From: Narcine bancroftii
Lineage: Eukaryota
Assembly (NCBI RefSeq): GCF_036971445.1
Contig: NC_091473.1
Coordinates: 200,074,001-200,138,000 of the forward strand
Length of the DNA stretch: 64,000 bases
Direction of reading: 5' to 3'
How positions within the stretch are numbered: the stretch's first letter is position 1; each line of letters opens with the position of its first letter. The translations under genes and the position numbers were made by a program. Positions 1 to 64,000 of the stretch are shown here, in pieces. The notes under the pieces are model-generated. The model was not told the DNA's origin, did not search any database, and saw only the letters and a list, made by a program, of their open reading frames with translations.

Positions 1-1267
1 TTGCCTGCAATGGAGAGCAACGTGATTCCCCTGTAGTTTGAGCAGTCTGATTTCTCGCCTTTGTTTTTGTACAGGGTGATGATGGTGGCATCACGAAGAT
101 CCTGAGGCAGTTTTCCTTGGTCCCAACAAAGCTTGAAAAACTCATGCAGTTTGGCATGCAGAGTTTTGCCGCCAGCCTTCCAGACCTCTGGGGGGATTCC
201 ATCCATACCTGCTGCTTTGCCACTTTTCAGTTGTTCGATTGCCTTATATGTCTCATCCAGGGTGAGAACCTCATCCAGCTCTAGCCTTAGGGGCTGTTGA
301 GGGAGCTGGAGCAGGGCGGAATCTTGGACTGAGCGGTTGGCACTGAAAAGAGATTGGAAGTGTTCTGACCATCGGTTGAGGATGGAGATCTTGTTGCTGA
401 GGAGGACTTTGCCGTCTGAGCTGCGCAGCGGGCTTTGGACTTGGGGTGAGGGGCCGTACACAGCCTTTAGAGCCTCGTAGAAACCCCTGAAGTCGCCAAT
501 GTCCGCGCTGAGCTGGGTTCATTTGGCGAGGCTAGTCCACCACTCATTTTGGATCTCCCGGAGTTTGCGCTGAAGATGGCTGCATGCGCGATGGAAGGCT
601 TGTTTCTTCTCTGGACAGGACGGCTTTGTAAGGTGAGCCTGGTGGGCAGCTCGCTTCTTTGCCAGCAGCTCCTGGATTTCCTGGCTGTTTTCGTCAAACC
701 AGTCCTTGTTTTTCCTGGAGGAGAAGCCCAGTACCTCTTCAGTGGATTGCAGTATGGTAGTCTTCAACTGATCCCAGAGGGTTTCAGGGGACGGGTCCGT
801 GAGGCGGGTTGCATCGTCGAGCTTTGCTTTGAGGTTTGCCTGGAAGTTTCCTCTCGCTTCGTCTGACTGCAGGTTTCCAACATTGAACCTCTTTCTGGGG
901 GCTTTATTGTTCCTGGGCTTTGGCTTGAAGTGAAGGTTGAGCTTGCAGTGAACCAGCCGGTGGTCAGTGTGGCATTCCGCGCTAGCCATGTCCCTGGTGT
1001 GGAGCACATCTCGTTTGTCACTTTCTCGCACCAGGATGTAGTCCAGGAGGTGCTAGTGTTTGGATCGGGGATGCATCCAGGTGGTCTTAAGGCTGTCCCT
1101 CTGCTGAAAAAGAGTGTTTGTAATGACAAGCCGCTGTTCTGCGCAGAGCTCCAACAGGAGGCGCCCATTGTCGTTGCACTTGCCGACGCCATGCTTGCCC
1201 AGGATTCCTGGCCAGGTTTCTGAGTCTTTGCCGACACGAGCGTTGAAGTCGCCCAGGATGACAACCT
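1..1267 (-). mobile_element. RTE-clade LINE, 3' portion (endonuclease C-terminal half, linker, start of RT), running off the window's left edge
   Basis: Minus-strand translation gives [39 protein letters not shown] and SDCSNYRGITLLSIAG. It contains a few premature stops. Confidence 0.92.
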
Positions 1268-1383
1268 CGGGCAGCGCTGTTGGGGAAAGGCCCTGGGCAG
1301 TTTCCTAAGGTGAAGAAGATGGTCTCTGTAATTTAAAAAAAACAAATTGTTGCACCTCATTTCTAATAGATTATTTACTGAAT

Positions 1384-1790
1384 GAGAGTGGGAGGCGGCG
1401 GCCCCAGTCCAGGCACAGGGTGAGCAGCAGCGGCCCCGGCCCCGGTCCGGGCGAAGGGTAGACGGCGGCGGCCCCGATACGGGCAGGAGAAAGGGGGAGA
1501 CGGCGGCCCCGGCCTCGGTCGAGTGAAGCAGGCGGAGGCCCCGGTCCGGGCAGGGAGTGGGAGGCGGCGGCCCCAGTCCGGGCACAGGGAGAGCAGCAGC
1601 GGCCCCGGCCCCGGTCCGGGCGAAGGGTAGGCGGCGGCGGCGGCCCCGATCTGGGCAGGAGCAAGGGGGAGACGGCGGCCCCGGCCTCGGTCGAATGGGG
1701 CAGGCGGAGGCCCCGATCCGGGCAGAGAGTGGGAGGCGGCGGCCCCAGTCCAGGCACAGGGTGAGCTGCGGCGGCCTCGGCCCCGGTCCG
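1384..1790 (+). repeat. ~169-bp GC/CpG-rich 5'UTR monomers (2 full + 1 partial)
   Basis: GAGTGGGAGGCGGCGGCCCCAGTCC recurs at ~1386, 1555 and 1727. Confidence 0.9.
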
Positions 1791-2014
1791 GGCAGTATGG
1801 ACCGACCTAGGAGGGGAGGCAGGCCCCTCCAGCCCGGGTAAGAAACCTGCATAGGAGAAGGCCACTCCGATATAAAACCTACGACCCAAGGACCTCGCTG
1901 CCACGTCCCAGCTTGCTTGGCCACGGCACACGAACCATGGGTGTAAAGGGTGGGGCCAGTACTGCGCGCACTGCACTCCACCTAAAAGCTCCTTTGCGCA
2001 GGCCCGAGGACAGG

Positions 2015-2224
2015 TCCACGTCCTCCCCCTCCACGTCCTCCCCCTCCACGTCCTCCCCCTCCACGTCCTCCCCCTCCACGTCCTCCCCCTCCACGTCCTC
2101 CCCCTCCACGTCCTCCCCCTCCACGTCCTCCCCCTCCACGTCCTCCCCCTCCACGTCCTCCCCCTCCACGTCCTCCCCCTCCACGTCCTCCCCCTCCACG
2201 TCCTCCCCCTCCACGTCCTCCCCC
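2015..2224 (+). repeat. 15-bp VNTR (TCCACGTCCTCCCCC)x14, in frame with the RTE ORF
   Basis: Perfect tandem array read directly from the sequence. Confidence 0.97.
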
Positions 2225-2665
2225 TCAAAAGATGCTCACAAACTCAAGCTAGCATGCTGGAACATCAGAACCATGCTAGACAAGGCTGACAGCCACCGAC
2301 CTGAACGTCGGTCTGCCCTCATTGCACATGAACTCCTCAGACTTGACATCGACATAGCCGCTCTCAGTGAAGTCCGCCTGGCAGATATAGGCAGCCTCCA
2401 AGAACGCGGCGCGGGCTACACACTCTACTGGTCTGGCAAGCCTTCGGATGAACGACGCCTATCTGGTGTAGGCTTCATGGTCAAGAGCTTCATTGCCTCC
2501 AAACTCGAAAACCTTCCGACAGGCCTCTCGGACCGAATCATGTCCATGCGACTCCCCCTTCAAAACAAGCGTCACATCACCCTCATCAGTGTCTATGCTC
2601 CAACCCTCCAGGCGGAACCAGCAGAAAAGGACAAGTTCTACACCGACCTGCGCAACCTCATCCAA

Positions 2666-3700
2666 ACCATATATAGCAAGGTGCATTAACCATGGCCCCT
2701 AACCTCCAAAATCCAATCTCCCCATCTCCAATCACCTTTTTTATTTTTGTCTCTAGCCTCCTGGATCTTCTCTCTATACTTTTTAGTATGGACTGCAAAA
2801 TCCGAGATATTAGCTGATTCATCCGGGATGTATGTGCAACATTCAGTGCCAATTAAAGCACAAGTCACCCCCTCTTTCTGCTAAAATAAAATGAAGGGCC
2901 ATGCGATTTTGGAGGACTGTAAGTCGCATGGCGGCCATCTCTGTATTTATTGCCCGGACGTGAGATTGGGCTTCCCCAAGCGCCAGGTCCACAGCATTTA
3001 CTAGTTCATCTAGGGTGGCTGCTAATTCTTAAATCTCAACCTCAGCTCGTGTGGCTCCATATGTCGGGAAAAATGTCCGCATAAGATAATCGCCTTCAGC
3101 CACCCTTTTTTTGCTTTGCCCATGGGACGAGACTAGTACAGGTTAAGAACACTGTCATGGGGAATTATATAGGCCAGGTACAACATCCACACCAACCTTT
3201 AGGTGTACGGGTCAATTTAAACCCTTTCGTCTGATTCTAACATTCCTTTTCCCCAGGTAACCATGAATAAATTTTACGTCCATACACCCAATATGTGCCA
3301 TTTACAGGCTGCGGGATTCAGTCGTGTGACGGTCCAATTCTGCATGTAATTGGAAACTCCTAGTTGGTTCCTCAAAAGGAAGCAACACTCCAGAGTGAGT
3401 AGTTGCTAACTTGGTTTGTTTTGGTCGTATAGACGACCCTTTGTATTTATCTTCAGTGGTTGGATCACTGTTGTTGGGCAAGGTATATATATCAAATAAT
3501 TCATGTAGGGAGAGAGGGACTGCTACTAAGGGGACTCCTGACTTGCCATGGTGTGGTATTTTCGCACATACCCAACAATCTGTTTGATTTTGGTTCTTAG
3601 CATAATTAGTACAGAGAGATAAAATAATTTTTAGGTTCAACACGCAAAGCTATGATATGTATAAGTACAAATTGAAATAGGGGAAAAGTTTCATTATTTT
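2666..3700 (-). pseudogene. env: Retroviral env remnant (SU QTDCWVC motif; TM immunosuppressive domain), cut at 2666 by the RTE insertion
   Basis: NQTDCWVCAKIP and RLTVLQNRMALHFILAE...CALIGTECCTYIPD, with a stop and a frameshift. Confidence 0.88.
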
Positions 3701-6700
3701 ACTTTTATTTTCTGTCCCTTTTTACTCCTCTTTCCTTCCTTCTGTGGCTGGTGGTGAGTCCACTGGTCTCTTTATTCTTGACGTGTGTGTCCACCCCTTT
3801 TCCTTCATTCGAACTGCTGTTTCTGTGGTCAACAGTACTAGGTATGGTCCGTTCCACCGGGGCTGAAGCTTTTCTTCTTTCCACGACTTGATCAGGACCC
3901 AGTCACCAGCATTCACAGAGTGGATAGGGAAATCCAGAGGAGGGCTCTGTGCCAGCAGACCCTTAGCTTTTAAATCTGCAAGAGAAAACACATCATTACT
4001 TTCAACTGTAGGTATTCCTTCTACCCGCCCCAAATATGGGAGTCCAAATAACATCTCATAAGGGGATATTCTAATGTCTTGTCGTAGGGCTGTCTGAATT
4101 CTGAGAAGAGCTATCAGTGAGTTCTCCTTCTGATGTCCTGGTACATGTACTATGGCAATTCTTTCTGGTTTGATTAATGCTTCTAAAGTCTTTTCAATTA
4201 GTTGCTCATAAGCCAGTTCTTTTCCTCTTGCTGTTATCATTCCCTGTTCTTTCCAAATTTTCCCAAATGTGTGTACCACTCCAAATGCATATTTCGAATC
4301 TGTATATATGGTACCTTCCTGCCCTTCCAACAGTTCCAGGGCTCTCATCAGGGCTTACAACTCACAGGACTGAGCAGACCAGCTGCAGGGCAGACACCCA
4401 GTTTCCATTTGGGTTCTGGTAACTCCATCAACGACAGCATATCCATTGTATCTCTTCCCACCTATACAGCTTGACGATCCATCTATGAACCACCGTTGTC
4501 CTTCTGAGTGAGGCTCCTCTTCTAAATCATCTCGACTTTTCGTTTTTTGTAGCTCGATCACCTCGCTACAGTCGTGCCCCGAGTCCACTGGTTCTTTATC
4601 TTCTCCTGACGAGTACAGGATCTATGAAGGGTTCAGACTTTTATCTGTACAAATCGTTGTCATCTTTTTCCATTAAGATTGCCTCATACTTTAAAATTCT
4701 CGAGTCTGTCAACCATCTGTGAGACTTCTGAGTTAAAATGGTTCTGATAGTGTGGGGAGTGAATACAACCAGACTCCCTCCAAAGGTAAATTTTCAGCTT
4801 TCTTTCACTAATACTGCAGTGGCTGCTACTGTTTGAATGCATTCTGGCCACCCTCGTGATACTGGGTCCAACATTTTTGAGAGGAATGCCACAGGTTGCC
4901 TTTGGCCTCCTCTTTTCTGAGCTAGCATTCCCAAAGCTATCCCTTTTTCCACATTTACAAACAAGTGGAAAGGCTGATTAATAACAGGCAAAGCCAGGAC
5001 CGGAGCATTAATCAAGTCTTTCTTCAAGCAATTAAATTCCTGCTGTTCCTCTAGGTTCCACTCCACATTTTCATTTTCGCTTCCCAGTTTTTCATATAAG
5101 AATCAGACTTTCTGTGCATATCTATCTATCCACAGTATCTATCTATCCACAGTCTACAATACCCAATTAATCCGAGGAACTTCCTTATCTCCTTCTGATT
5201 TTTCGGTAAAGGCAGACCGGTGATACCAGCAATTCGTTCAGGTCCGATTCTCTTTTTCCCTTGACTAATCAAGTGTCCCAAATACCTTACTTCCTGTTCG
5301 ACCAACTGCTGTTTGTTCTTAGAAACTCTTAACCCTTTCTCTCCCAAGAAGTTTAGCAACTCAATAGTGGATTCACGAACTTCATTTTCCTTTGTTCCTG
5401 AAATCAACAGATCGTCTACTTACTGTATTAACTGTGTTCCCGGAGTGTATGGGTGTTCTTCTAAAACTTGTCCAAATAGATTGGGAGATTCTGTAAACCC
5501 TTGGGCGAGGACTGTCCATTGATACTGCTGTATCGAGTGGGTCCTCCCACTCGAATGCAAACAAGTCCCAACTATTCTCATCCAAGGGGCAACTCCAAAA
5601 AGTATCTTTCAAATCTACAACTGTAAACCACTCGTGTTCCGGGGGAATTCGATTCAATATGTTATAAGGGTTTGGGACTACTGGATATCGTGTCTGAACA
5701 ATCTTATTTAATTCTCGTAGATCCTGGACCAACCGGAAAGTCCCATCCGTTTTCCGTTCAGGGAGGATAGGGGTGTTATAAGGGGATGTGCAACTTTCTA
5801 GCATTCCATCTCGCAGCAAATTTTCAATAATCGGCTGAAGGCCTCTTCGTCTTTCTACAGAAATAGGATACTGTTTCATCCGTACTGGCTGGAACCCCTC
5901 CTTTAGGGTTATTTTGAGTGGGGCTATTTGCAGTCCTCCCGTTTCCCTCTCCGGCCCAGACACAGTCCCCAATGTCCTGGATATCCTCTTCCCTCAACAG
6001 GTACAATTTCACCATTATATGTCCTTCCACTGTACCAACTCCTATTCTAATTTGCAGATCTTGTCCTATCAGATTCACCCCAGCTTGAGGAACCAGAATC
6101 AGGTCTTCAATTGCCTCCCTGTCTTGATACTTCACACGGACCCCCTTGATCAGAGGGGTCTTCATGACTCTCCTCCGTACTCCCGATACCTTTAATTGTG
6201 GACTAGTGAATCTAACTCACTCCGGTATAATGTTTAATGATGATCTAGTAGCCTCTGTGTCCACCAGAAAAATGGCATCCTTTTTGTTGGGTCCCACCTG
6301 GAAGAAACCCCCGATCCCACTAATCCTCCCCAAAAGTCATCAGAGGGATATCATCCCTTTCCCTCTTTAATTCGAGACATTCCTGTTTGAAATGTCCCAC
6401 TTTCCCACAATAGTAACCCCCTGCCTGCTGGGGTTACCCAAAACTCAAGTACATCAACATAATAACAATCGGAACATTTCCATCGCTCAATTTCTCTATC
6501 AGAGGCGTCCCTCTGGTGGAGTCTAATCACCTGGATGGAAGGTATAAGGCTTGTTGAGGAGGACTCATGTTGAACTAAATCTTTGGGGTCCCAATCTTGA
6601 TAACCCTTTCGATACTTTATCTGCTGCCTCATTAAGTTAAGAAATCACATCTTTATCATGGGTATGTGCTCAACTTTAAATTGCAAACAAATTGGTATCT

Positions 6701-11639: not shown

Positions 11640-13063
11640 GCGTGACTCCAACAAGGGCCGGGCCGGGCAGGGCCCCGAACAGTCGGGATCCCCACACACC
11701 TCAGTCATTCCCCTCACGCTCCGCCTGTCCACCCGGGGCAAGTCTCACCTCCACCCCCGGGGCAAGTCTCACCTCCACCCCCGGGGCAAGTCTCACCTCC
11801 ACCCCCGGGGCAAGTCTCACCTCCACCCCCGGGGCAAGTCTCACCTCCACCCCCGGGCCCAGGCCATGGCCTCCTCCGTAGACTCGCCAGTTGCTGAGAG
11901 AACGGAGCTCAGGGACGTTCGAAGGCCCTGTGACGACAATGCGTAACGGACTGGCTCGGGCACACCGTCACTTGACTGGGCGACCGCAGCCCAGGAGGAG
12001 TGGCAGAGGGAGCTGCCAATCAGAGGAGGGGCGGCGCCTGTGCTTCCCTGTACATGCGGAAAGGGGCTTCCCCAGTCCTTTCCGGGTGGAATCTGGAGCA
12101 GTGTTCATTGGAACCGGGAATAAAGCAGCGAAGAATGAGGGGGATAAATAAATAAGGGAAACGGGAGTGTGGGATAAAACTGGCCCGAAATGGGGAGAAT
12201 AGACGGTCAGAGTTCATGTTGAGGGTTTTCACAGCCAAACGGTGCCGAAAGTGAGCGGTGAAGCTGCGCTCAGTGAGTGTCGGGCGGGCGGGCTCTGGGC
12301 TCAGTGATGGACAATAAGGAGAGAGCAGATTGAGAAAGAGGGTTTAGCATCATCCTGCTCAAACGTTGGTTCGGACTCAGCTGGAGATGTTGGCGATGGA
12401 ATCCGATTTCCGCGCTCCCTCCCTCCCTCCATCATGTTCCCGCGGCTTCAGTGGACGAGGCTCCCTTTCAAACGAACCCGCGTCTCCTCTCCCCGACCCG
12501 GGGAGCCCCACCTTCCGCCCGGGCCCGAGGGGAGCATTAATCTCCAGTGTGGAAGCAATAAATGGGAACCTTTCCAACAGCCCTAACTCCACATTGGATG
12601 AAAACTCAGATCAATGACGGATCTTCACTCACATGGTTCCAATCCTGTTCAATGAGGAAGCTCAGTTTCACCAAGTCCAGGCAAATGATGGAGCTCCGCC
12701 CCTTTAAGGAAGGGGGGTCAAGGACGTCCCATGGGGTGACGTCATCTGGTTCGCCAGACGGATGACGCTCAGAGTTCTTCATAAGCATGCGCAGTGGGTG
12801 TATCCCCGACAGGCGCTTGTTGGAGATCGAATATGATTCAGAACCGGGCGCCGGGAGCAGTTCGCAGCACCTGGACCTGGAACCGAGGCTCCCGTGGTTC
12901 TGGGCTTTGCAGCGCCCGGCGAGAGGACGTTTCTCTCCGGGTCCCGGCCCCATTCCCAATTTCTGTTTTCATTTAACCCGCGGCCCAGCTCTGCGGGACC
13001 CTCCATCGGGCCGAGCCCGCGCTGTGGGGCCCGGGGCAGGTCTACATTGACTTATCTCCACAG
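11640..13063 (+). promoter_or_regulatory. CpG island, probable promoter, non-coding first exon and first intron of the zinc-finger gene at 13066
   Basis: CpG-rich. CCAAT at ~12016. Candidate donors GTGAGC (12251) and GTGAGT (12273). CRE TGACGTCA at ~12738 and NRF1-like GCATGCGCA at ~12785. Acceptor TCTCCACAG ends at 13063, 2 nt before the ATG. Confidence 0.65.
11729..11857 (+). repeat. 24-bp minisatellite (GGCAAGTCTCACCTCCACCCCCGG) x~5
   Basis: Direct tandem repeat with period 24. Confidence 0.92.
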
Positions 13064-13065
13064 CG

Positions 13066-13905
13066 ATGAACCCTTTCCAGTGCTCCGACTGCGGGAAGAA
13101 ATTTAAACGTCTGGGTGACTTAAAGAGACACCAACGGGTCCACACCGGGGAGAGGCCCTTCACTTGCCCTGAGTGCAAGAAGGCCTTCGCTAGGTTGTCC
13201 AACCTTGATGTGCACCTGCGGATCCACACGGGGGAGAGGCCGTTCACCTGTCCCGATTGCGGGAAGGGGTTTGCCCAGATCACCAACCTACGGACCCACC
13301 AGTGGATCCACACCGAGGAAAAGCCTTTCTCTTGTCCCGAGTGCGAGAAGGCCTTCAGCAGGTTGTCCAGTCTTGAGGTACACCAGCGGGTCCACACAGG
13401 GGAGAGGCCGTTCACTTGCTCCGAGTGCGAGAAGGCCTTCAGCAGGTGGTCCCACCTTGAGAGACACCAGCGTGTCCACACAGAGGAGAGGCCCTTCATT
13501 TGTCCGGAGTGCGGCAAGGGCTTCACCCAGAACTCCCACTTGCAGATACACCAGCGGGTCCACACAGGGGAAAAGCCATTCACCTGCTCCAAGTGCAAGA
13601 AGTCCTTCACCAGGTTGTCCAACCTTGAGGTACACTGGCGGATTCACACTGGCGAGAGGCCCTTCACCTGCCCCGAGTGCAAGAAGTCCTTCAACAGGTT
13701 GTCCAACCTTGAGGTACACCGGCGGATTCACACTGGCGAGAGGGCGTTCACCTGCCCCAAGTGTGGCAAAGACTTCACCGACACCTCCAGTCTGCAGAGG
13801 CACCAGTGGGTCCACACTGGGGAAAAGCCGTTCACCTGCTTTGAGTGTGGGAAAGGTTTTACCCAGTCAGACATCCTGCTGAAACACCAGCGAGTTCACA
13901 CATAA
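13066..13905 (+). CDS. C2H2 zinc-finger protein, 10 tandem fingers, no KRAB/SCAN/BTB domain seen
   Basis: 279-aa intact ORF with ten CX2CX12HX3H units and TGERPF-type linkers, preceded by a splice acceptor. Confidence 0.9.
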   Translation: MNPFQCSDCGKKFKRLGDLKRHQRVHTGERPFTCPECKKAFARLSNLDVHLRIHTGERPFTCPDCGKGFAQITNLRTHQWIHTEEKPFSCPECEKAFSRLSSLEVHQRVHTGERPFTCSECEKAFSRWSHLERHQRVHTEERPFICPECGKGFTQNSHLQIHQRVHTGEKPFTCSKCKKSFTRLSNLEVHWRIHTGERPFTCPECKKSFNRLSNLEVHRRIHTGERAFTCPKCGKDFTDTSSLQRHQWVHTGEKPFTCFECGKGFTQSDILLKHQRVHT

Positions 13906-22734: not shown

Positions 22735-22934
22735 TTTTTTTTTTCTTTGGCTTGGCTTCGCGGACGAAGATTTATGGAGGGGGTAAAAAGTCCACGTCAG
22801 CTGCAGGCTCGTTTGTGGCTGACCAGTCCGATGCGGGACAGGCAGACACGATTGCAGCGGTTGCAAGGGAAAATTGGTTGGTTGGGGTTGGGTGTTGGGT
22901 TTTTCCTCCTTTGCCTTTTGTCAGTGAGGTGGGC
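22735..22934 (-). mobile_element. 5'-truncated RTE LINE 3' end
   Basis: HLTDKRQRRKNP...CNRCNRVCLSRIGLVSH C-terminal zinc finger, A-rich tail and TSD TCTCCAAAT. Confidence 0.88.
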
Positions 22935-22968
22935 TCTCCAAATACAAAAGAGAGAAAATGTATGAACC

Positions 22969-36302: not shown

Positions 36303-37713
36303 ATGAACCTGTTTCAGTGCTCCGTCTGTGGGAAAAACTTAAAACGGTTGACTGAGTTAACAAGACACCAGGGAGAGGCTGTTCACCTGTCCCGAGTGCA
36401 AGAAGGCCTTCACCAGGTTGTCCAGCCTTGAGACACACCGACAGGTCCATACCGGGAGAAGCCCTTCTCCTGCCCCAAGTGAGAAAAGAGTTCATCCAGA
36501 TCTCCAACCTGCAGAACCATCAGTGGGTCCACACTGGAGAAAAGCCATTTGCCTGCCCTGAGTGTGATAAGGGCTGCACCAGGTTGTCCAGCCCTGAAAC
36601 ACACCGATTGGTCCACACTGGGGAAAGGCCCTTCACCTGCCCCATGTACAGCAAAGAGTTCACCAACACCTCCAGTCTGCAGAAGCACCAGCGGATCCAA
36701 ACTGAGGAAAAGCTGTTCGCCTGCCCTGAATGCGAGAAGACCTTCACTAACCAGTCCAGCCTTGCAATACACCATCATGTCCACAGCAGTGAGAGGCCCT
36801 TCTCCTGCTCCGTGTGGCAAAGGCTTCAACACCTCCAGCCTGCAGAGGCACCAGCAGGGCCACACTGAGGAAAAACCATTCAACCTGCCTTGAGTGTGCC
36901 AAGGTCTTTGCCCAGTCCTCCAACTGAGGTTGCACCAGCAGGCCCACACTGGGAAAAAGCCATTCACCTGCTCTGAGTTCAGAAAGGGGTTTGCCCAGTC
37001 CTCCAACCTGCAGAGCCACGAGTGGGACGATACCAGGGAAAAGCCATTCACCTGCTCTGAGTGCAGAAAGGGGTTTGCCCAGTCCTCCAACCGGCAGAGG
37101 CACAAGTGGGACGATACCAGGGAAAAGCCATTTGCCTGCCCTGAGTGTGAGAAGGCCTTCACCTGGTTGTCCACCCTTGAGACACACCGACGGATGTACA
37201 AGGGGGAGATGCCCTTCGCCTGCTTTGAATGCGATGAGAGGTTCAGTGAGTCCAGCAAGTTGAGGAGATGCCAACAAGTTCACACTAGGAAGAGGCCTTT
37301 CACTTGCCCTCAGTGTGGGAAGGGGTTTATCCAGACTTATGAGCTGATGTCCCACCAGCAAGTCCACTCCAGGAAAGGCCATTCATCTGTCCCAAGTGTG
37401 GGAGGGGCTTTATCCAATCCTCTCAGCTGCTGACCCACCAGCAGGTACACTCTGGGAAGAGAGCATTCTTTAGCCCCGTGCAGAAAGGGGTTCACCCAGT
37501 CCTCCAACCTGCTGACACACCAGTGGGGTACATCGGGGAGAGGCCATGCACCTGCTCCGTGTAGGAAGAGCTTAACCCAGTCCTCCAACCTGCTGAGACC
37601 TGCTGACTCACCAGTGGGTCCACACCAGGAAGAGGCTGTTCACCTGCTCCGAGTGTGGGTAGGGCTTCACCCAGTCAGACAATCTGCTGAAACACCAGCG
37701 AGCTCACACACAA
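36303..37713 (+). pseudogene. C2H2 zinc-finger pseudogene (multiple frameshifts, lost Cys/His)
   Basis: Same acceptor-ATG start (CCCCACAG|CAATGAAC), degenerate fingers in shifting frames, and the same terminal finger as 13066-13905. Confidence 0.88.
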
Positions 37714-37747
37714 AGTTTTCAGAATGTGGAATATTGAAACTCACTCA

Positions 37748-38593
37748 GAGTTCCAGCTGGTGAGCACGTCGGGTCAGAGGCAGTCATATGGTGCTCCTGC
37801 CAACTTTCAAACATTTCTCGCTCGATCATCTTTCATCTTTAAACAAAGAGGATAAAACATCCCCTTCACTATTTAATGTCATTGCTTTTGGAGATGATGA
37901 CCACCAGAGGAGCTAAAGCAGCAAAAAATGGTAAAGAAGATATGGCCCCTCTGACTGCAGACTCTGTCCCAGACATGTTGAAAAAACAACCACGGGAGAT
38001 AACAAGAGAAACAATTGCAGAAGGTCAACGGGAGATTAATTCTAAGCCTGAGAAGGTTTTATGAGCGATTTCAGCAATTGAAGAGCATTTCGAAACAGTG
38101 TTTGAAGTCTGTTAATGACCATAGATAAATGAGAAACTCAATGTGTCAGCCTCCAACTCCAAGTTGGCCTGGAAGGTGGTTAATTTGGAGAGTAAGAGCA
38201 GATGCCAAATCATTCAGATCTTGCACTGAAAGGAAGACACTGAACAAAGGCCAGTTAACTGACTTCTCAAATCTACTCATGGAAGTGTTTGGAAGAGAGT
38301 GTTTTGCTAAGCCTGGTCTCTGGTTCCCAAGCAAACCTCGGAACATTGTTCATGTTCAGTAATTCTTCGTTTTCGTCATAACCAAGAAAAGGATCGTGTT
38401 ATTCATGAAGCTTATCCCATCAGAAATTTGAATGATCAGGTCAACAAATTACATTTGTGGAAGATTTTTCCATGAAGTTTTGTGGAGATGTGGAAAGATT
38501 ACAGAGGTTATGACTGAGCTGTGCAAGAAAAGACTTAGACCCACTTTGTTTGTATCCAGCTCGTCTGCGGGTCACCTTGGAAAACGGCCACAA
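37748..38593 (+). mobile_element. L1 5'UTR + ORF1 fragment paralogous to 13942-15370
   Basis: MTTRGAKAAKNGKEDMAPLTADS, located at the same position after the ZNF end. Confidence 0.85.
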
Positions 38594-39231
38594 AAGAAGC
38601 CTTCACTTGCCCGATTGCATCAAGGGCTTCTGCGAGCGATCAAACTTGCTGAACACTAGAAAATTCACAGCAGAGACAGGCCATTCATCTGCCAGAGTGC
38701 GGGAAGGACTTCACTCAGTTATCCCAGCTGCAGACCCACCAGATGGTCCACACCATCCCGTCAGGAAGAGCTTTATCCATTCGTATGAGCTGAGGCCCAC
38801 CAGCAGGTACACTCTGTGGAGAGGCCGTTCATCTGCCCCAATTGTGGTAGGAGCATTATCCAGTCCTCCCACCTGCTGAACCACCAGCAGGTCCACTCTG
38901 GGGAGAGGCTGTTCAACTGCTCTGACTGCAGGAAGGGTTTCACCTATCCCTCCCAGGTAGTAACTCACCAGCAGGTACACTCAAGGGAGAGGCCAATCAT
39001 TTGCCCCAATTGCGAAAAGGGGTTCTCCCAGTCCTCCAACCTGCTGACACACCAGTGGGGTACATCGGGGAGAGGCCATGCACCTGCTCCATGTAGGAAG
39101 AGCTTAACCCAATCCTCCTACCTGCTGAGACACCAGTGTGTCCATGCCAGGGAGAGGCCATTCATCTGCTCAGTGTATGAAACTTCACCCAGTTGAACAA
39201 CCTGGTGAAATACCAGTGAGTTCACACATAA
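38594..39231 (+). pseudogene. Second C2H2 zinc-finger pseudogene segment (3' part of an array)
   Basis: ERPFICPNCG...HQQVHSGERLFNCSDC with frameshifts, followed by the uninterrupted 3' flank unit. Confidence 0.85.
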
Positions 39232-46874: not shown

Positions 46875-47195
46875 ACTTGTGGATCCGTTGGTGCTTCCAC
46901 ATGCCGCTGACTGGATGAAGCTCTTGCCGCAGTTGAAGGGCCTTTCCCTGGTGTGGACCCACTGGTGGATCAGGAAGTTGCATGACCTGGTGAACCCTTT
47001 GCTGCATTTGAGGCAGGTGGACGGCCTCTACCTGTTGTAGAACCACTGGTGCAGGTACAGGCTGGAGGTCAGGGTGAAGCTGTTGCCACACTCGGGACAG
47101 ATGAACGGCTTTTCACCGGTGTGGACCCGCAAGTGACTCAAGAGGTGGGAGGATCGGGCAAACTCCTTCCCACATTTGGGGCAGGTGAAGGGTCT
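46875..47195 (-). pseudogene. Decaying zinc fingers downstream of the premature stop
   Basis: In frame past the TAG: [40 protein letters not shown]..., then a second TAG. Confidence 0.8.
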
Positions 47196-49358
47196 CTACC
47201 TGGTGTGGACCAGCTGGTGTCTCAACAGATGGGAGGACTGGAAAAACCCCTTCCCACACTCGGGGCAGATGAATGGCCTGCCTCTGGTGTGTGCCTGTTG
47301 GTGTCTCAGCAGGCTGGAGGTATGGGTGAAGTCCTTGTCACAGACGGGGCAGGTGAAGGGCCCCTCTCCTTTGTGGGCCTGCTTGTGTATCTCAAGGTTG
47401 GCCAAACTGTTGAAGGTCTTCTTGCACTCAGAGCAGGTGAAGGACCTCTCCCTGGTGTGGATCAGCTGGTGTCTCATCAAGTGGGAGGGCTGAACAAACC
47501 CCTTCCCACAATCAGAGCAGATGAATGGCCTCTCTCCGGTGTGAACCCGTTGGTGTCTCAGCAGGCTGGAGGAATGGATGAAGCCTTTGCTACAGTTGTG
47601 GCAGGTGAAGGGCCTCTCCCCAGAGTGGACCCGCTGGTGAGCCAGCAGTTTGAAGTTATGGGTGAAGCCCTTGCTGCACTTGGAACAGACAAACCGGTTT
47701 TTACTGGTGTGGACCCTCTGATGCCTCTGCAGGCTGGAGGTCTGGTTGAAGCCCTTGCCACACTCAGGGCAGGTGAATGGTTCCTCTCCGGTGTGGACCC
47801 GCAAGTGACTCAAGAGGTTGGAGGATCGGACAAACTTCTTTCCGTACTTGGGGCAGTTGAAGGGTCTCTCCCGGTTGTGGATCAGCTGGTGTCTCAGCAG
47901 GTTGGAGGACTGGATAAACCCCTTCCTACACTTGGGGCAGATGAATGGCCTCTCTCTGGTGTGAACCCGATGGTGTCTCAGCAGGCTGGAGTTATGGGTG
48001 AAGCCTTTGCCACAGTCGTGGCAGGTGAAGGGCCTCTCCCCGGAGTGGACCCGCTGGTGAGCCAACAGTTTGGAGTTCTGGGTGAAGCCCTTGCCACACT
48101 CGGAACAAATGAACGGCTTTTCACCAGTGTGGATCCACTGATGCATACGCAGGTTGGAGACGTGGTTGAAGCCCTTGCCACATTCAGGGCAGGTGAATGG
48201 TTTCTCTCCGGTGTGGACCAGCAAGTGACTCACAAGGTGGGAGGACTGGACAAACAACTTCCCACACTTGGGGCAGGTGAAGGATCTCTCCTGGGTGTGG
48301 ATCAGCTGGTGTCTCAGCAGGTGGGAGGACTGGATAAACCCCTTCCTACACTTGGGGCAGATGAATGGCCTCTCTCTGGTGTGAACCCGTTGGTGTCTCA
48401 GCAGGCTGGAGGTACGGGTGAAGCCTTTGCCACAGTCGTGGCAGGTGAAGGGCCTCTCCCCGGAGTGGACCCGCTGGTGAGCCAACAGTTTGGAGTTCTG
48501 GGTGAAGCCCTTGCCACACTCGGAACAGATGAACGGCTTTTCATCAGTGTGGATCCACTGATGCGTCCGCAGGTTGGAGACATGGTTGAAGCCCTTGCCA
48601 CACTCAGGGCAGGTGAATGGTTTCTCTCCGGTGTGGACCAGCAAGTGACTCACGAGGTGGGAGGACTGGACAAACAGCTTCCCACACTTGGGGCAGGTGA
48701 AGGATCTCTCCTGGGTGTGGATCAGCTGGTGTCTCAGCAGGTGGGAGGACTGGATAAACCCCTTCCTACACTTGGGGCAAATGAATGGCCTCTCTCTGGT
48801 GTGAACCCGTTGGTGTCTCAGCAGGCTGGAGGTACGGGTGAAGCCTTTGCCACAGTCGTGGCAGGTGAAGGGCCTCTCCCCGGAGTGGACCCGCTGGTGA
48901 GCCAACAGTTTGGAGTTCTGGGAGAAGCCCTTGCCACACTCAGAACAGATGAACGGCTTTTCACCAGTGTGGATCCACTGATGCATCCGCAGGTTGGAGA
49001 CGTGGTTGAAGCCCTTGCCACACTCAGGGCAGGTGAATGGTTTCTCTCCGGTGTGGACCAGCAAGTGACTCACAAGGTGGGAGGACTGGACAAACAGCTT
49101 CCCACACTTGGGGCAGGTGAAGGATCTCTCCTGGGTGTGGATCAGCTGGTGTCTCAGCAGGTGGGAGGACTGGATAAATCCCTTTTTGCACTCGGAGCAG
49201 ATGAACGGCCTCTCCCTGGTGTGAACCCGTTGGTGTCTCAGCAGGCTGGACTCGGGGCAGGTGAAGGGCTTCTTCCTGGAGTGGCCCCGCTGGTGTCTCG
49301 TTAACTCATTCGATCTTTTGAAGTTCTTCCCGCAGTCGGAGCACTGAAACGGCTTCAT
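47196..49358 (-). CDS. C2H2 zinc-finger protein, 26 finger units (24 intact), no KRAB seen; 720 aa from the ATG at 49358
   Basis: Long open frame. The start is placed by the conserved acceptor CCCTACAG|CGATG. Unit 2 has an in-frame deletion and unit 19 has C->Y. The ORF ends at a TAG in a linker. Confidence 0.85.
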   Translation of the reverse strand: MKPFQCSDCGKNFKRSNELTRHQRGHSRKKPFTCPESSLLRHQRVHTRERPFICSECKKGFIQSSHLLRHQLIHTQERSFTCPKCGKLFVQSSHLVSHLLVHTGEKPFTCPECGKGFNHVSNLRMHQWIHTGEKPFICSECGKGFSQNSKLLAHQRVHSGERPFTCHDCGKGFTRTSSLLRHQRVHTRERPFICPKCRKGFIQSSHLLRHQLIHTQERSFTCPKCGKLFVQSSHLVSHLLVHTGEKPFTCPECGKGFNHVSNLRTHQWIHTDEKPFICSECGKGFTQNSKLLAHQRVHSGERPFTCHDCGKGFTRTSSLLRHQRVHTRERPFICPKCRKGFIQSSHLLRHQLIHTQERSFTCPKCGKLFVQSSHLVSHLLVHTGEKPFTCPECGKGFNHVSNLRMHQWIHTGEKPFICSECGKGFTQNSKLLAHQRVHSGERPFTCHDCGKGFTHNSSLLRHHRVHTRERPFICPKCRKGFIQSSNLLRHQLIHNRERPFNCPKYGKKFVRSSNLLSHLRVHTGEEPFTCPECGKGFNQTSSLQRHQRVHTSKNRFVCSKCSKGFTHNFKLLAHQRVHSGERPFTCHNCSKGFIHSSSLLRHQRVHTGERPFICSDCGKGFVQPSHLMRHQLIHTRERSFTCSECKKTFNSLANLEIHKQAHKGEGPFTCPVCDKDFTHTSSLLRHQQAHTRGRPFICPECGKGFFQSSHLLRHQLVHTR
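47820..49250 (-). repeat. 420-bp (5-finger) higher-order tandem repeat, 3 near-identical copies plus a partial copy
   Basis: Sequence at 48241, 48661 and 49081 is nearly identical, and the helices QSSHLLR-QSSHLVS-HVSNLRM-QNSKLLA-RTSSLLR repeat. Confidence 0.93.
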
Positions 49359-50768: not shown

Positions 50769-51030
50769 AGGGGACGAGGGGAGGGGAAGGGGAGGGGAGG
50801 GGACGAGGGGAGGGGAAGGGGAGGGCAGGGGGGGGGAAGGGGAGGGGAGGGCAGGGGGGGAAGGGGAGGGGAGGGCAGGGGGGGAAGGGGAGGGGAGGGG
50901 AGTGGACGGGGGGGAAGGGGAGGGGAGAGGAGGGGACGGGGGGGGGAGGGGAGGGGAGAGGAGGGGACGGGGGGGGGAGGGGAGGGGACGGGGGGGAAGG
51001 GGAGGGGAGGGGACGGGGTGAGGGGAGGGA
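50769..51030 (+). repeat. Polypurine (GGGGA)n low-complexity tract
   Basis: Almost pure G/A tract adjoining the gap. Confidence 0.9.
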
Positions 51031-53850: not shown

Positions 53851-54085
53851 TGTGGGCAGCAACCTCCTTTGAAGAAGACCGCAGAGCCCACCTCACTGAC
53901 AAAAGACAAAAGAGGAAAAACCCAACACCCAACCCCAACCAACCAATTTTCCCTTTCAAACGCTGCAACCATGCCTGCCTGTCCCGCATCGGACTTTTCA
54001 GTCACCAACGAGCCTGCAGCAGGCGTGGACATACCCCTCCATAAATCTTCGTCCGCGAAGCCAAGCCAAAGAAAAAAGAAGAAAA
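53851..54085 (+). mobile_element. 5'-truncated RTE LINE 3' end inserted in ERV B integrase
   Basis: Same C-terminus as 22735-22934, A/G-rich tail, absent at the equivalent ERV A site (~4010). Confidence 0.88.
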
Positions 54086-55634: not shown

Positions 55635-56186
55635 TAGGTACACGATCCTTTATCTGGAACCCTTGAGGGACAGTGTGTTCTGAATTTTAGATTTTTCCGG
55701 ATTTTGGAAAGCCCACCTGAATTGTGCTGCTGTATCCACCCCCATCCCTGTCCAGTCTCCCAGCTGTCTCGCCATTCGGCCGTCTCGCCACACCGCGGTC
55801 CCGCGGCCGTCTCGCCCCACCACGGTCCCGCGGCCGTCTCGCCCCACCGCGGTCCCGCGGCCGTCTCGCCCCCACCGCGGTCCCGCGGCCGTCTCGCCCC
55901 CACCGCGGTCCCGCGGCCGTCTCGCCCCCACCGCGGTCCCGCGGCCGTCTCGCCCCCACCGCGGTCCCGCGGCCGTCTCGCCCCCACCGCGGTCCCGCGG
56001 CCGTCTCGCCCCCACCGCGGTCCCGCGGCCGTCTCGCCCCCACCGCGGTCCCGCGGCCGTCTCGCGCCCGGCAGTTTCCCCCAACCGACTTCCTCGACCG
56101 CCTGGCAGTCTACCCTGGCGGTCTCCCCTTACCGGATTTTGAAGCTTTCTGTATTTTAGATGTCCGGATAAAGAATCATGTAATTG
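55635..56186. mobile_element. Tigger/Tc1-mariner-like MITE in ERV B pol
   Basis: TIR TAGGTACACGATCCTTTATCTGGA / TCCGGATAAAGAATCATGTAATTG with TA on both sides. Absent at ERV A ~4812. Confidence 0.8.
55777..56066. repeat. 28-bp CpG-rich minisatellite (CCGCGGTCCCGCGGCCGTCTCGCCCCCA) x~10
   Basis: Direct tandem array. Confidence 0.93.
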
Positions 56187-61071: not shown

Positions 61072-62645
61072 GTGGGAGTGGGAGGCGGCGGCCCCAGTCC
61101 AGGCACAGGGAGAGCAGCAGCGGCCCCGGCCCCGGTCCGGGTGAAGGGTAGACGGCGGCGGCCCCGATACGGGCAGGAGCAAGGGGGAGACGGCGGCCCC
61201 GGCCTCGGTCGAGTGAGGCAGGCGGAGGCCCCGGTCCAGGCAGGGAGTGGGAGGCGGCGGCCCCAGTCCAGGCACAGGGAGAGCAGCAGCGGCCCCGGTC
61301 CGGGCGAAGGGTAAACGGTGGCGGCCCCGATACGGGCAGGAGCAAGGGGGCGACGGCGGCCCCGGCCTCGGTCGAGTGAGGCAGGCGGAGGCCTCGGTCC
61401 GGGCAGGGAGTGGGAGGCGGCGGCCCCAGTCCAGGCACAGGGAGAGCAGCAGCGGCCCTGGCCCCGGTCCGGGCGAAGGGTAGACGGCGGCGGCCCCGAT
61501 ACGGGCAGAAGCAAGGGGGAGACGGCGGCCCCGGCCTCGGTCGAGTGAGGCAGGCGGAGGCCCCGGTCCGGGCAGGGAGTGGGAGGCGGCGGCCCCAGTC
61601 CAGGCACAGGGAGAGCAGCAGCGGCCCCGGCCCCGGTCCGGGCGAAGGGTAGACGGCGGCGGCCCCGATACGGGCAGGAGCAAGGGGGAGACGGTGGCCC
61701 CGGCCTCGGTCGAGTGAGGCAGGCGGAGGCCCCGGTCCAGGAAGGGAGTGGGAGGCGGCGGCCCCAGTCCAGGCACAGGGAGAGCAGCAGCGGCCCCGGC
61801 CCCGGTCCGGGCGAAGGCAAGACGGCGGCGGCCCCGATACGGGCAGGAGCAAGGGGGAGACGGCGGCCCCGGCCTCGGTCGTGTGAGGCAGGCGGAGGCC
61901 CTGGTCCGGGCAGGGAGTGGGAGGCGGCGACCCCAGTCCAGGCACAGGGAGAGCAGCAGCGGCCCCGGTCCGGGCGAAGGGTAGACGGCGGCGGCCCCGA
62001 TACGGGCAGGAGCAAGGGGGAGACGGCGGCCCCGGCCTCGGTCGTGTGAGGCAGGCAGAGGCCCCGATACGGGCAGAGAGTTGGAGGCGGCGGCCCCAGT
62101 CCAGGCACAGGGAGAGCAGCAGCGGCCCCGGTCCGGGCGAAGGGTAGACGGCGGCGGCCCCGATATGGGCAGGAGCAAGGGGGAGACGGCGGCCCCGGCC
62201 TCGGTCGTGTGAGGCAGGCGGAGGCTCCGATACGGGCAGAGAGTTGGAGTCGGCGGCCCCAGTCCAGGCACAGGGAGAGCAGCAGTGGCCCCAGCCCCGG
62301 TCCGGGCGAAGGGTAGACGGCGGTGGCACGATACGGGCAGGAGCAAGGGGGAGACGGCGGCCCCGGCCTCGTTCGAGTGAGGCAGGCGGAGGCCCCGGTC
62401 CGGACAGGGAGTGGGAGGCGGCGGCCCCAGTCCGGGCACAGGGAGAGCAGCAGCGGCTCCGGCCCCGGTCCGGGCGAAGGGTAGACGGCTGCGGCCCCGA
62501 TCCGGGCAGGAGCAAGGGGGAGACGGCGGCCCCGGCCTCGGTCGAGTGAGGCAGGCGGAGGCCCCGATCCGGGCAGAGAGTGGGAGGCGGCGGCCCCAGT
62601 CCAGGCACAGGGTGAGCTGCGGCGGCCTCGGCCCCGGTCCAGGCA
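61072..62645 (+). repeat. 163-169-bp CpG-rich 5'UTR monomer array (9 full + 1 partial)
   Basis: Unit starts at ~61077, 61246, 61409, 61578, 61747, 61916, 62079, 62242, 62410 and 62579. Confidence 0.92.
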
Positions 62646-62865
62646 GTATGGACCGACCTAGGAGGGGAAGCAGGCCCCTCCAGCCCGGTTAAGAAACCTG
62701 CATAGGAGAAGGCCACTCCGATATAAAACCTACGACCCAAGGACCTCGCTGCCACGTCCCAGCTTGCTTGGCCACGGCACACGAACCATGGGTGTAAAGG
62801 GTGGGGCCAGTACTGCGCGCACTGCACTCCACCTAAAAGCTCCTTTGCGCAGGCCCGAGGACAAG

Positions 62866-63676
62866 TCCACGTCCTCCCCCTCCGCGTCCTCCCCCTCCGC
62901 GTCCTCCCCCTCCGCGTCCTCCCCCTCCGCGTCCTCCCCCTCCGCGTCCTCCCCCTCCGCGTCCTCCCCCTCCGCGTCCTCCCCCTCCGCGTCCTCCCCC
63001 TCCGCGTCCTCCCCCTCCGCGTCCTCCCCCTCCGCGTCCTCCCCCTCCGCGTCCTCCCCCTCCGCGTCCTCCCCCTCCGCGTCCTCCCCCTCCGCGTCCT
63101 CCCCCTCCGCGTCCTCCCCCTCCGCGTCCTCCCCCTCCGCGTCCTCCCCCTCCGCGTCCTCCCCCTCCGCGTCCTCCCCCTCCGCGTCCTCCCCCTCCGC
63201 GTCCTCCCCCTCCGCGTCCTCCCCCTCCGCGTCCTCCCCCTCCGCGTCCTCCCCCTCCGCGTCCTCCCCCTCCGCGTCCTCCCCCTCCGCGTCCTCCCCC
63301 TCCGCGTCCTCCCCCTCCGCGTCCTCCCCCTCCGCGTCCTCCCCCTCCGCGTCCTCCCCCTCCGCGTCCTCCCCCTCCGCGTCCTCCCCCTCCGCGTCCT
63401 CCCCCTCCGCGTCCTCCCCCTCCGCGTCCTCCCCCTCCGCGTCCTCCCCCTCCGCGTCCTCCCCCTCCGCGTCCTCCCCCTCCGCGTCCTCCCCCTCCGC
63501 GTCCTCCCCCTCCGCGTCCTCCCCCTCCGCGTCCTCCCCCTCCGCGTCCTCCCCCTCCGCGTCCTCCCCCTCCGCGTCCTCCCCCTCCGCGTCCTCCCCC
63601 TCCGCGTCCTCCCCCTCCGCGTCCTCCCCCTCCGCGTCCTCCCCCTCCGCGTCCTCCCCCTCCGCGTACTCCCCCC
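62866..63676 (+). repeat. 15-bp VNTR, 54 units, mostly TCCGCGTCCTCCCCC
   Basis: The first unit is TCCACG, followed by 52 perfect TCCGCG units and a final 16-bp variant. Confidence 0.95.
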
Positions 63677-64000
63677 TCAAAATATGCTCACAAACTCAAG
63701 CTAGCATGCTGGAACATCAGAACCATGCTAGACAAGGCTGACAGCCACCGACCTGAATGTCGGTCTGCCCTCATTGCACATGAACTCCTCAGACTTGACA
63801 TCGACATAGCCGCTCTCAGTGAAGTCCGCCTGGCAGATGTAGGCAGCCTCCAAGAACGCGGCGCGGGCTACACACTCTACTGGTCTGGCAAGCCTTCGGA
63901 TGAACGACGCCTATCTGGTGTAGGCTTCATGGTCAAGAGCTTCATTGCCTCCAAACTCGAAAATCTTCCGACAGGCCTCTCGGAACGAATCATGTCCATG

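Follow-up and report, generated by a model that had tools for sequence, protein, structure and literature searches.

A stretch of 64,000 nt from Narcine bancroftii (RefSeq assembly GCF_036971445.1, contig NC_091473.1, positions 200,074,001 to 200,138,000, forward strand), referred to here as the window, includes two copies of an RTE LINE in which a tandem array of 15-nt units lies between an ATG and the endonuclease. These copies probably belong to an AviRTE-like family that lacks a start segment of approximately 350 nt and uses a new ATG in its 5′ UTR block, with the unit at the junction serving as a dispensable Ser-Pro linker and the long arrays arising by host-side minisatellite growth after insertion.

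The two copies and their family

The features of the two copies are listed below (window positions).

Copy 1
1..1268, minus strand: ORF continuation with 2 stops, oriented opposite to the 5′ piece, from the rest of the endonuclease as far as the beginning of the RT region
1384..1793, plus strand: 5′ monomer array, 2.4 copies, same start phase as in copy 2
1852..2009, plus strand: conserved 5′ UTR block containing ATG 1937
2015..2224, plus strand: array of 14 perfect TCCACG-type units, in frame
2225..2665, plus strand: endonuclease codons 1-147, then broken off

Copy 2
61074..62644, plus strand: 5′ head, likely of promoter type, of 9.4 tandem GC-rich monomers of 163-169 nt each (GC 0.77, CpG o/e 0.78)
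62703..62860, plus strand: conserved RTE 5′ UTR block, homologous to the AviRTE 5′ UTR piece retained by its SINEs
62788..62865, plus strand: apparently family-specific ATG and 26-codon leader, reading through the UTR block
62866..63675, plus strand: array of 54 15-nt units (1 TCCACG, 52 TCCGCG, 1 degenerate)
63676..63676, plus strand: frame-shifting extra C; contigs across the junction have five C, not six
63677..64000, plus strand: APE-type endonuclease start with 3 private changes, truncated where the window ends

In copy 1, the ATG stands in an ACCATGG context and is followed by 26 unique codons, after which the 14 units are identical and the frame is open into the endonuclease. The array of copy 2 begins with one TCCACG-type unit, followed by 52 of the TCCGCG type and a last unit that carries one further change. 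The extra C then shifts the frame, and the ATG frame reaches a stop at 63739-63741. TRF scores for the two arrays (424 and 1606) are far above chance, and their flanks differ at 3 of 224 nt on the left and 5 of 324 nt on the right. The original prediction, made from the window alone, had reported the 14 and 54 units, the +1 slip and the near-identical flanks, and the sequence agrees on all three. Two further points need amendment. The repeated peptide is present, but counted from unit 1 its phase is STSSP/SASSP, not SSPST/SSPSA. The frame of copy 1, described as intact, is open from array into endonuclease, but copy 1 itself is not intact, as the frame ends at 2665 and its continuation is inverted and has 2 stops. 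The unit is free of stops in all three plus-strand frames (STSSP, PRPPP and HVLPL), so that any array whose length is divisible by three automatically has an open frame.

The 5′ piece of copy 1 (1384-2665, plus strand) and the continuation (1268-1, minus strand) lie head to head, with approximately 6 codons lost at the inversion junction and an unrelated 115-nt spacer at 1269-1383. This arrangement fits twin priming with 5′ extension, or a later inversion. Both copies are headed by a second variable array, made up of 2.4 and 9.4 CpG-rich, GC-rich monomers, respectively, each 163-172 nt long. These monomers start in the same phase and resemble mouse L1 promoter monomers. These heads are rich in the GGCCCCGG motif, which is noted in the GC-rich heads of AviRTE SINEs (Suh et al. 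2016, PMC4844689). A monomer head was sought upstream in 19 related loci and none was found, and an Rfam scan of 62300-62900 for an HDV-like ribozyme head gave two chance-level matches only. Upstream of the main ATG, and in a different frame from it, both copies have a 14-codon ORF (1797-1841 and 62648-62692).

Elsewhere in the window, a decayed endogenous retrovirus (2670-6000, minus strand), whose pol and env pieces contain stops and frameshifts, abuts copy 1, and short, older RTE-like 3′-end fragments were seen at 22800-22937 (minus strand) and 53856-54020 (plus strand). Three other GC-rich tandem arrays are present, at 55777-56069 (28-nt unit, 10.6 copies, 98 %), 50769-51029 (a (GAGGG)-type tract) and 11732-11857 (24-nt unit, 5.2 copies, perfect). 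Clusters of C2H2 zinc-finger exons with an 84-nt period lie at 13128-13840, 36382-39123 and 46929-49250, one of them with approximately 27 fingers.

A query with the endonuclease part matched 97 proteins from 753 candidates, most with RT domains, the best at 73-80 % identity (fish, lancelet). The window pieces align to residues 27-600 of full-length EN-RT proteins at 64-80 %; the RT core and the 3′ ends of both copies fall beyond the window. In the supplement of Suh et al. (PMC4844689), the ORF of AviRTE starts with nearly the same sequence as the endonuclease here, and on this sequence comparison the element is assigned as an AviRTE-like RTE LINE; an 18-nt exact motif of the AviRTE 5′ UTR block is also found in both window copies.

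When the first 40 residues were used as the query, the one match among 15 candidates was a N. bancroftii protein, P0249, 100 % identical; none of 34 candidates scored when the leader was sought among longer proteins. The P0249 cluster contains a second N. bancroftii model, P0250, on another large contig. Both have the identical ATG leader followed in frame by 5 and 4 units, respectively, and both match PF03372, the APE-type endonuclease (E values of 2e-13 and 3e-12); the match on the truncated protein P0001 is weak. P0249 and P0250 are Gnomon-type RefSeq gene models named CFDP2-like (4 and 3 accessions) that extend over leader and endonuclease. The P0249 model closes with a non-RTE tail, which suggests exonisation of the element's 5′ end. 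As predicted, the ATG is in a strong context and the array is placed between it and the endonuclease, in 4 of 4 copies, and the unit number varies (4, 5, 14 and 54).

The sequencing data were assembled contigs in all 19 runs; contigs drop rare variants and their depth does not equal copy number. In run X1, 955 contigs align over 355 nt and 376 of these are at least 99 % alike, which marks the family as high-copy and fairly young. The stretch was also carried by organisms C and D, in one run each. Two and one to two other runs of the same samples, respectively, were empty (X7 versus X17 and X18; X10 versus X15 and X16), and these two were not taken as evidence from other species. None of the runs with the stretch is on record as RNA, X6 and X8 being RNA by guess only, and no claim on expression is drawn from them.

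Origin of the leader and the start codon

By eye, the stretch around the ray ATG corresponds to a conserved 5′ UTR block in the AviRTE consensus file of Suh et al. (PMC4844689), and AviRTE-mobilised SINEs are described there as keeping this block in their tails. Among the rows of that file, over approximately 400 letters each, the position of the ATG is TTA in 8 of the 10 readable rows and TCA in the other 2 (the eleventh has N), and the 15-nt unit has no match within the same letters.

Of 19 metagenome loci that encode relatives, 16 had no match to the block and 2 none to the WN motif of the endonuclease. The block was matched over 160 nt in three, L005 (84 %), L004 (83 %) and L001 (81 %), two of which are nearly identical to one another. 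Endonuclease DNA identity for the three is 76 %, below that of their UTR block, and the block (1852-2009 in the window; 393-550 in L001, 1951-2109 in L004 and 1954-2112 in L005) is thus more conserved than coding DNA. It has single-base gaps within the would-be leader in these relatives, and the three carry CTG, CCG and CCG at the ATG position (ATG in 0 of 3). The first 9 letters of the ray unit are invariant in 5 of 5 aligned rows and are followed by a C tract. From block to WN there are 396-416 nt in L001, L004 and L005 versus 54 nt in a single-unit ray copy. The additional middle segment of approximately 350 nt is 86-98 % conserved among the three loci and had no match when searched against the window. 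An in-frame Met lies inside it, 68-69 codons before WN, in L004 and L005; L001 has none. Homology to the relatives resumes approximately 12 codons before WN, beside another C run.

On this comparison with three relatives, the 15-nt unit likely marks a deletion junction and the ATG appears as a family-specific gain. The order seen in relatives is block with the first 9 nt of the unit, C tract, 350-nt segment and endonuclease. A deletion between the two C runs would have fused the UTR to codon 11-12 before WN, and one change at a site that reads CTG, CCG, TTA or TCA in relatives would have given the ATG and kept the ORF translatable. Slippage may first have duplicated the unit, giving source elements with a few units, and long arrays would then have grown in place, by slippage or conversion, in copies with no need of the frame, as the mutation pattern described below suggests; quadruplexes on the G-rich strand may have aided this growth.

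Translation through the unit is likely, since copy 1 has no in-frame ATG other than ATG 1937 upstream of WN and the Asn of this motif is a catalytic-site residue of APE endonucleases. By eye, the Argonauta model P0025 seems to have the short layout too, in which case the deletion may predate rays or have recurred. One related contig, L020, has an RTE-like endonuclease piece (2501-2833, 61 %) within a bacterial MAG contig, and this is likely host DNA contamination.

In a consensus fold of five rows, the A of the new ATG is unpaired within a long hairpin of the UTR block, at weak support; the covariation term is unfavourable (+2.44). Single-strand folds of the UTR were no better than shuffles (z of 0.68 and 1.16), and a structured UTR block is treated here as a modelled lead only.

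Variation, timing and function of the arrays

The best-supported loose end at the right edge of the array in X1 (9 contigs, agreement 0.7) has a consensus that shares 27 of 30 letters with the leader followed by a single unit, versus 14 and 17 of 30 for two and three units. Nine X1 contigs and one contig of X5 (organism B) have five C at the junction, i.e. in frame. With this fit of the loose end, the contigs indicate that single-unit in-frame copies exist. The original prediction had counted a majority of single-unit copies against itself; what was found is that such copies are present, a statement on their existence and not on their share. Summed contig depth is approximately 70,000 over two array units versus 216,000 at 63683 in the endonuclease, a weak hint that most copies are short, which we set aside as evidence because depth is not copy number.

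Unit counts of 1, 4, 5, 14 and 54 thus occur among copies approximately 1-2 % apart, and array turnover outpaces point mutation, as had been proposed. Copy 2 carries letters that the family lacks: its T63683 is in 0 of 34 X1 contigs, and at 63758 and 63964 it differs from 98 % and 100 % of contig depth. Its units 2-53 nevertheless have no change in 780 nt and all 104 CpG are intact, while the flanks of this copy have 1-2 % changes. The difference from the right flank (3 in 324 nt) has a Fisher p of 0.025 and that from the monomer head (27 singletons in 1502 nt) a p of 1.5e-5, though monomer singletons may predate insertion and the private changes of copy 2 could stem from a decayed parent, from which a burst of RT slippage would leave a similar picture. 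Because the array is unchanged beside flanks with 1-2 % changes, it was likely homogenised after insertion, in an already decayed, out-of-frame copy. Most simply, a single variant unit would have swept and expanded once most of the flank mutations had occurred, in a copy already in place. The array of copy 1 (no change in 210 nt) is not significantly cleaner than its flanks and is too short for such a test.

Some multi-unit arrays may instead be inherited from sources, as P0249, with 5 units, shows just one private amino-acid change over 278 codons, compared with 8 in P0250 (4 units) and five in copy 1. Source elements with a few units probably existed. All three complete short-to-medium arrays seen are in frame; P0249 and P0250 are biased in this respect because they were found as proteins, where out-of-frame copies could not appear.

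Long arrays could also be born at insertion, through slippage of the reverse transcriptase on the C-rich unit, in which case copy 2 would be a recent insertion whose parent was decayed. The 52 copies of one variant behind an unchanged unit 1 do fit a single burst, and such slippage has been proposed for RTE 3′ repeats (Tay et al. 2010, PMC2887409). However, the known RTE slippage concerns short 3′ repeats, and human TE-derived repeats add units with age, in place (Ahmed and Liang 2012, PMC3389668). As the T63683 of copy 2 is in 0 of 34 X1 contigs, no sister copies with its marks were seen, with the reservation that contigs drop rare variants. We regard slippage at insertion as unlikely, and growth after insertion is preferred.

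The original prediction saw in the array a functional leader of variable length, and in this form, selection would maintain a Ser/Thr-Pro leader that tunes the element protein through phosphorylation, solubility or host escape. The unit length is a multiple of three, 3 of 4 copies are in frame, the strong-context ATG is present in all four, and a coding region of polymorphic length, different from one family to another, is known from mouse L1 ORF1 (Sookdeo et al. 2013, PMC3600994). However, a unit length divisible by three has a one-in-three prior and this unit has no stop in any plus frame. The leader derives from a UTR, its ATG is not conserved in relatives, single-unit copies are present, and neither window copy is intact. 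When 125 related proteins carrying a WN motif were compared, a perfect three-fold leader peptide repeat was found only in P0249, leaving 124 related leaders without such a repeat, though the imperfect array of P0250 escaped the pattern. The claim fares poorly: the leader is a former 5′ UTR whose ATG is missing in relatives, and the longest of the arrays sits out of frame within a copy that has decayed. A functional coding VNTR of the mouse L1 type has a number of units that is fixed within active families, in a conserved protein region, whereas here the number varies and the region is UTR in relatives; as in TE-derived minisatellites, the unit is homologous to a single-copy TE stretch and unit number varies by locus. 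A function for the Ser-Pro leader is not supported, a selected leader is very improbable, and a tolerated disordered linker is all that the evidence asks for.

It is equally improbable that the array is untranslated, the deleted family being mobilised in trans or starting otherwise and the ATG being incidental. The ATG does lie within the predicted conserved UTR hairpin (from 5 rows only), the upstream out-of-frame ATG opens its 14-codon ORF in both copies, and 51 of the 97 related proteins are called from a Met after WN. However, that internal Met is downstream of WN, with its catalytic-site Asn. The short junction dominates the family (34 X1 contigs over 63683; best loose end leader plus unit) and the ORF downstream has been kept. 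That the length of 54 units, their uniformity or the slip is an assembly or polishing artefact is scarcely credible: the junction letter T63683 of copy 2 is absent from contigs, but the sequencing run may come from another animal, the switch from TCCACG to TCCGCG after unit 1 is unlike collapse onto the family majority, and independent gene models also vary in unit number.

Quadruplex-driven instability is known for other minisatellites. The G-rich strand of the array had no match to the canonical quadruplex pattern (loops up to 7), and 13 matches with loops up to 12, with a G4Hunter-type mean of 1.8. Quadruplex-driven instability of this array, which the pattern score suggests, is a lead. A broader proposal is unlikely, namely that an autonomous LINE lineage outlived the loss of its start region by making its cis-acting 5′ UTR RNA element coding, that active sources carry and use the variable Ser/Thr-Pro leader, and that the family thereby spawns in-frame, quadruplex-prone minisatellites at thousands of loci, some of which have become exons of host transcripts.

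Comparison with known systems

If the preferred reading (a lost start segment, a recruited ATG and growth in place) is right, the family is a clean case of a retrotransposon that, following a deletion, drew a new start codon out of its own UTR element. It would also offer a natural experiment on minisatellite birth, with one seed, many loci and ages datable from flanks in a slowly evolving vertebrate genome, and the timing of TE-borne repeat growth, at or after insertion, would be directly testable. The ray array does not indicate a new protein function. Variable arrays borne by retroelements are familiar from the CCCTCT hexamer and VNTR of SVA.

AviRTE and related RTE LINEs of aquatic animals (PMC4844689) share with the ray family a nearly identical endonuclease start and the conserved 5′ UTR block. 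The ray family differs in that it lacks the segment between block and ORF, its block contains an ATG, and it carries a 15-nt array and 169-nt head monomers. Like TE-derived multi-locus minisatellites (PMC3389668), it has a retroelement seed that yields a variable C-rich/G-rich array locus by locus, likely after insertion, but the ray seed belongs to a LINE from a cartilaginous fish and lies in frame between ATG and endonuclease. The length polymorphism region of mouse L1 ORF1 (PMC3600994) likewise has in-frame N-terminal tandem units, together with variable 5′ monomers. Those units are of 66 and 42 bp, in 2-4 copies, define active families and build the ORF1 coiled coil, whereas the ray unit is derived from a UTR, stands before the endonuclease and is present in up to 54 copies, in elements that are dead. 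In Lepidoptera, too, an RTE is the progenitor of repeat families (PMC2887409), but those repeats are of 2-3 nt and lie in the 3′ UTR, whereas the ray unit measures 15 nt and sits at the ORF's 5′ end.

Among the papers listed by a literature search, Repbase and Dfam being outside its scope, none describes the 15-nt array. The known kinds are TE-seeded minisatellites and the mouse L1 length polymorphism, and beside them the ray array is a modest new variant that combines a lost start, a recruited ATG and a junction minisatellite.
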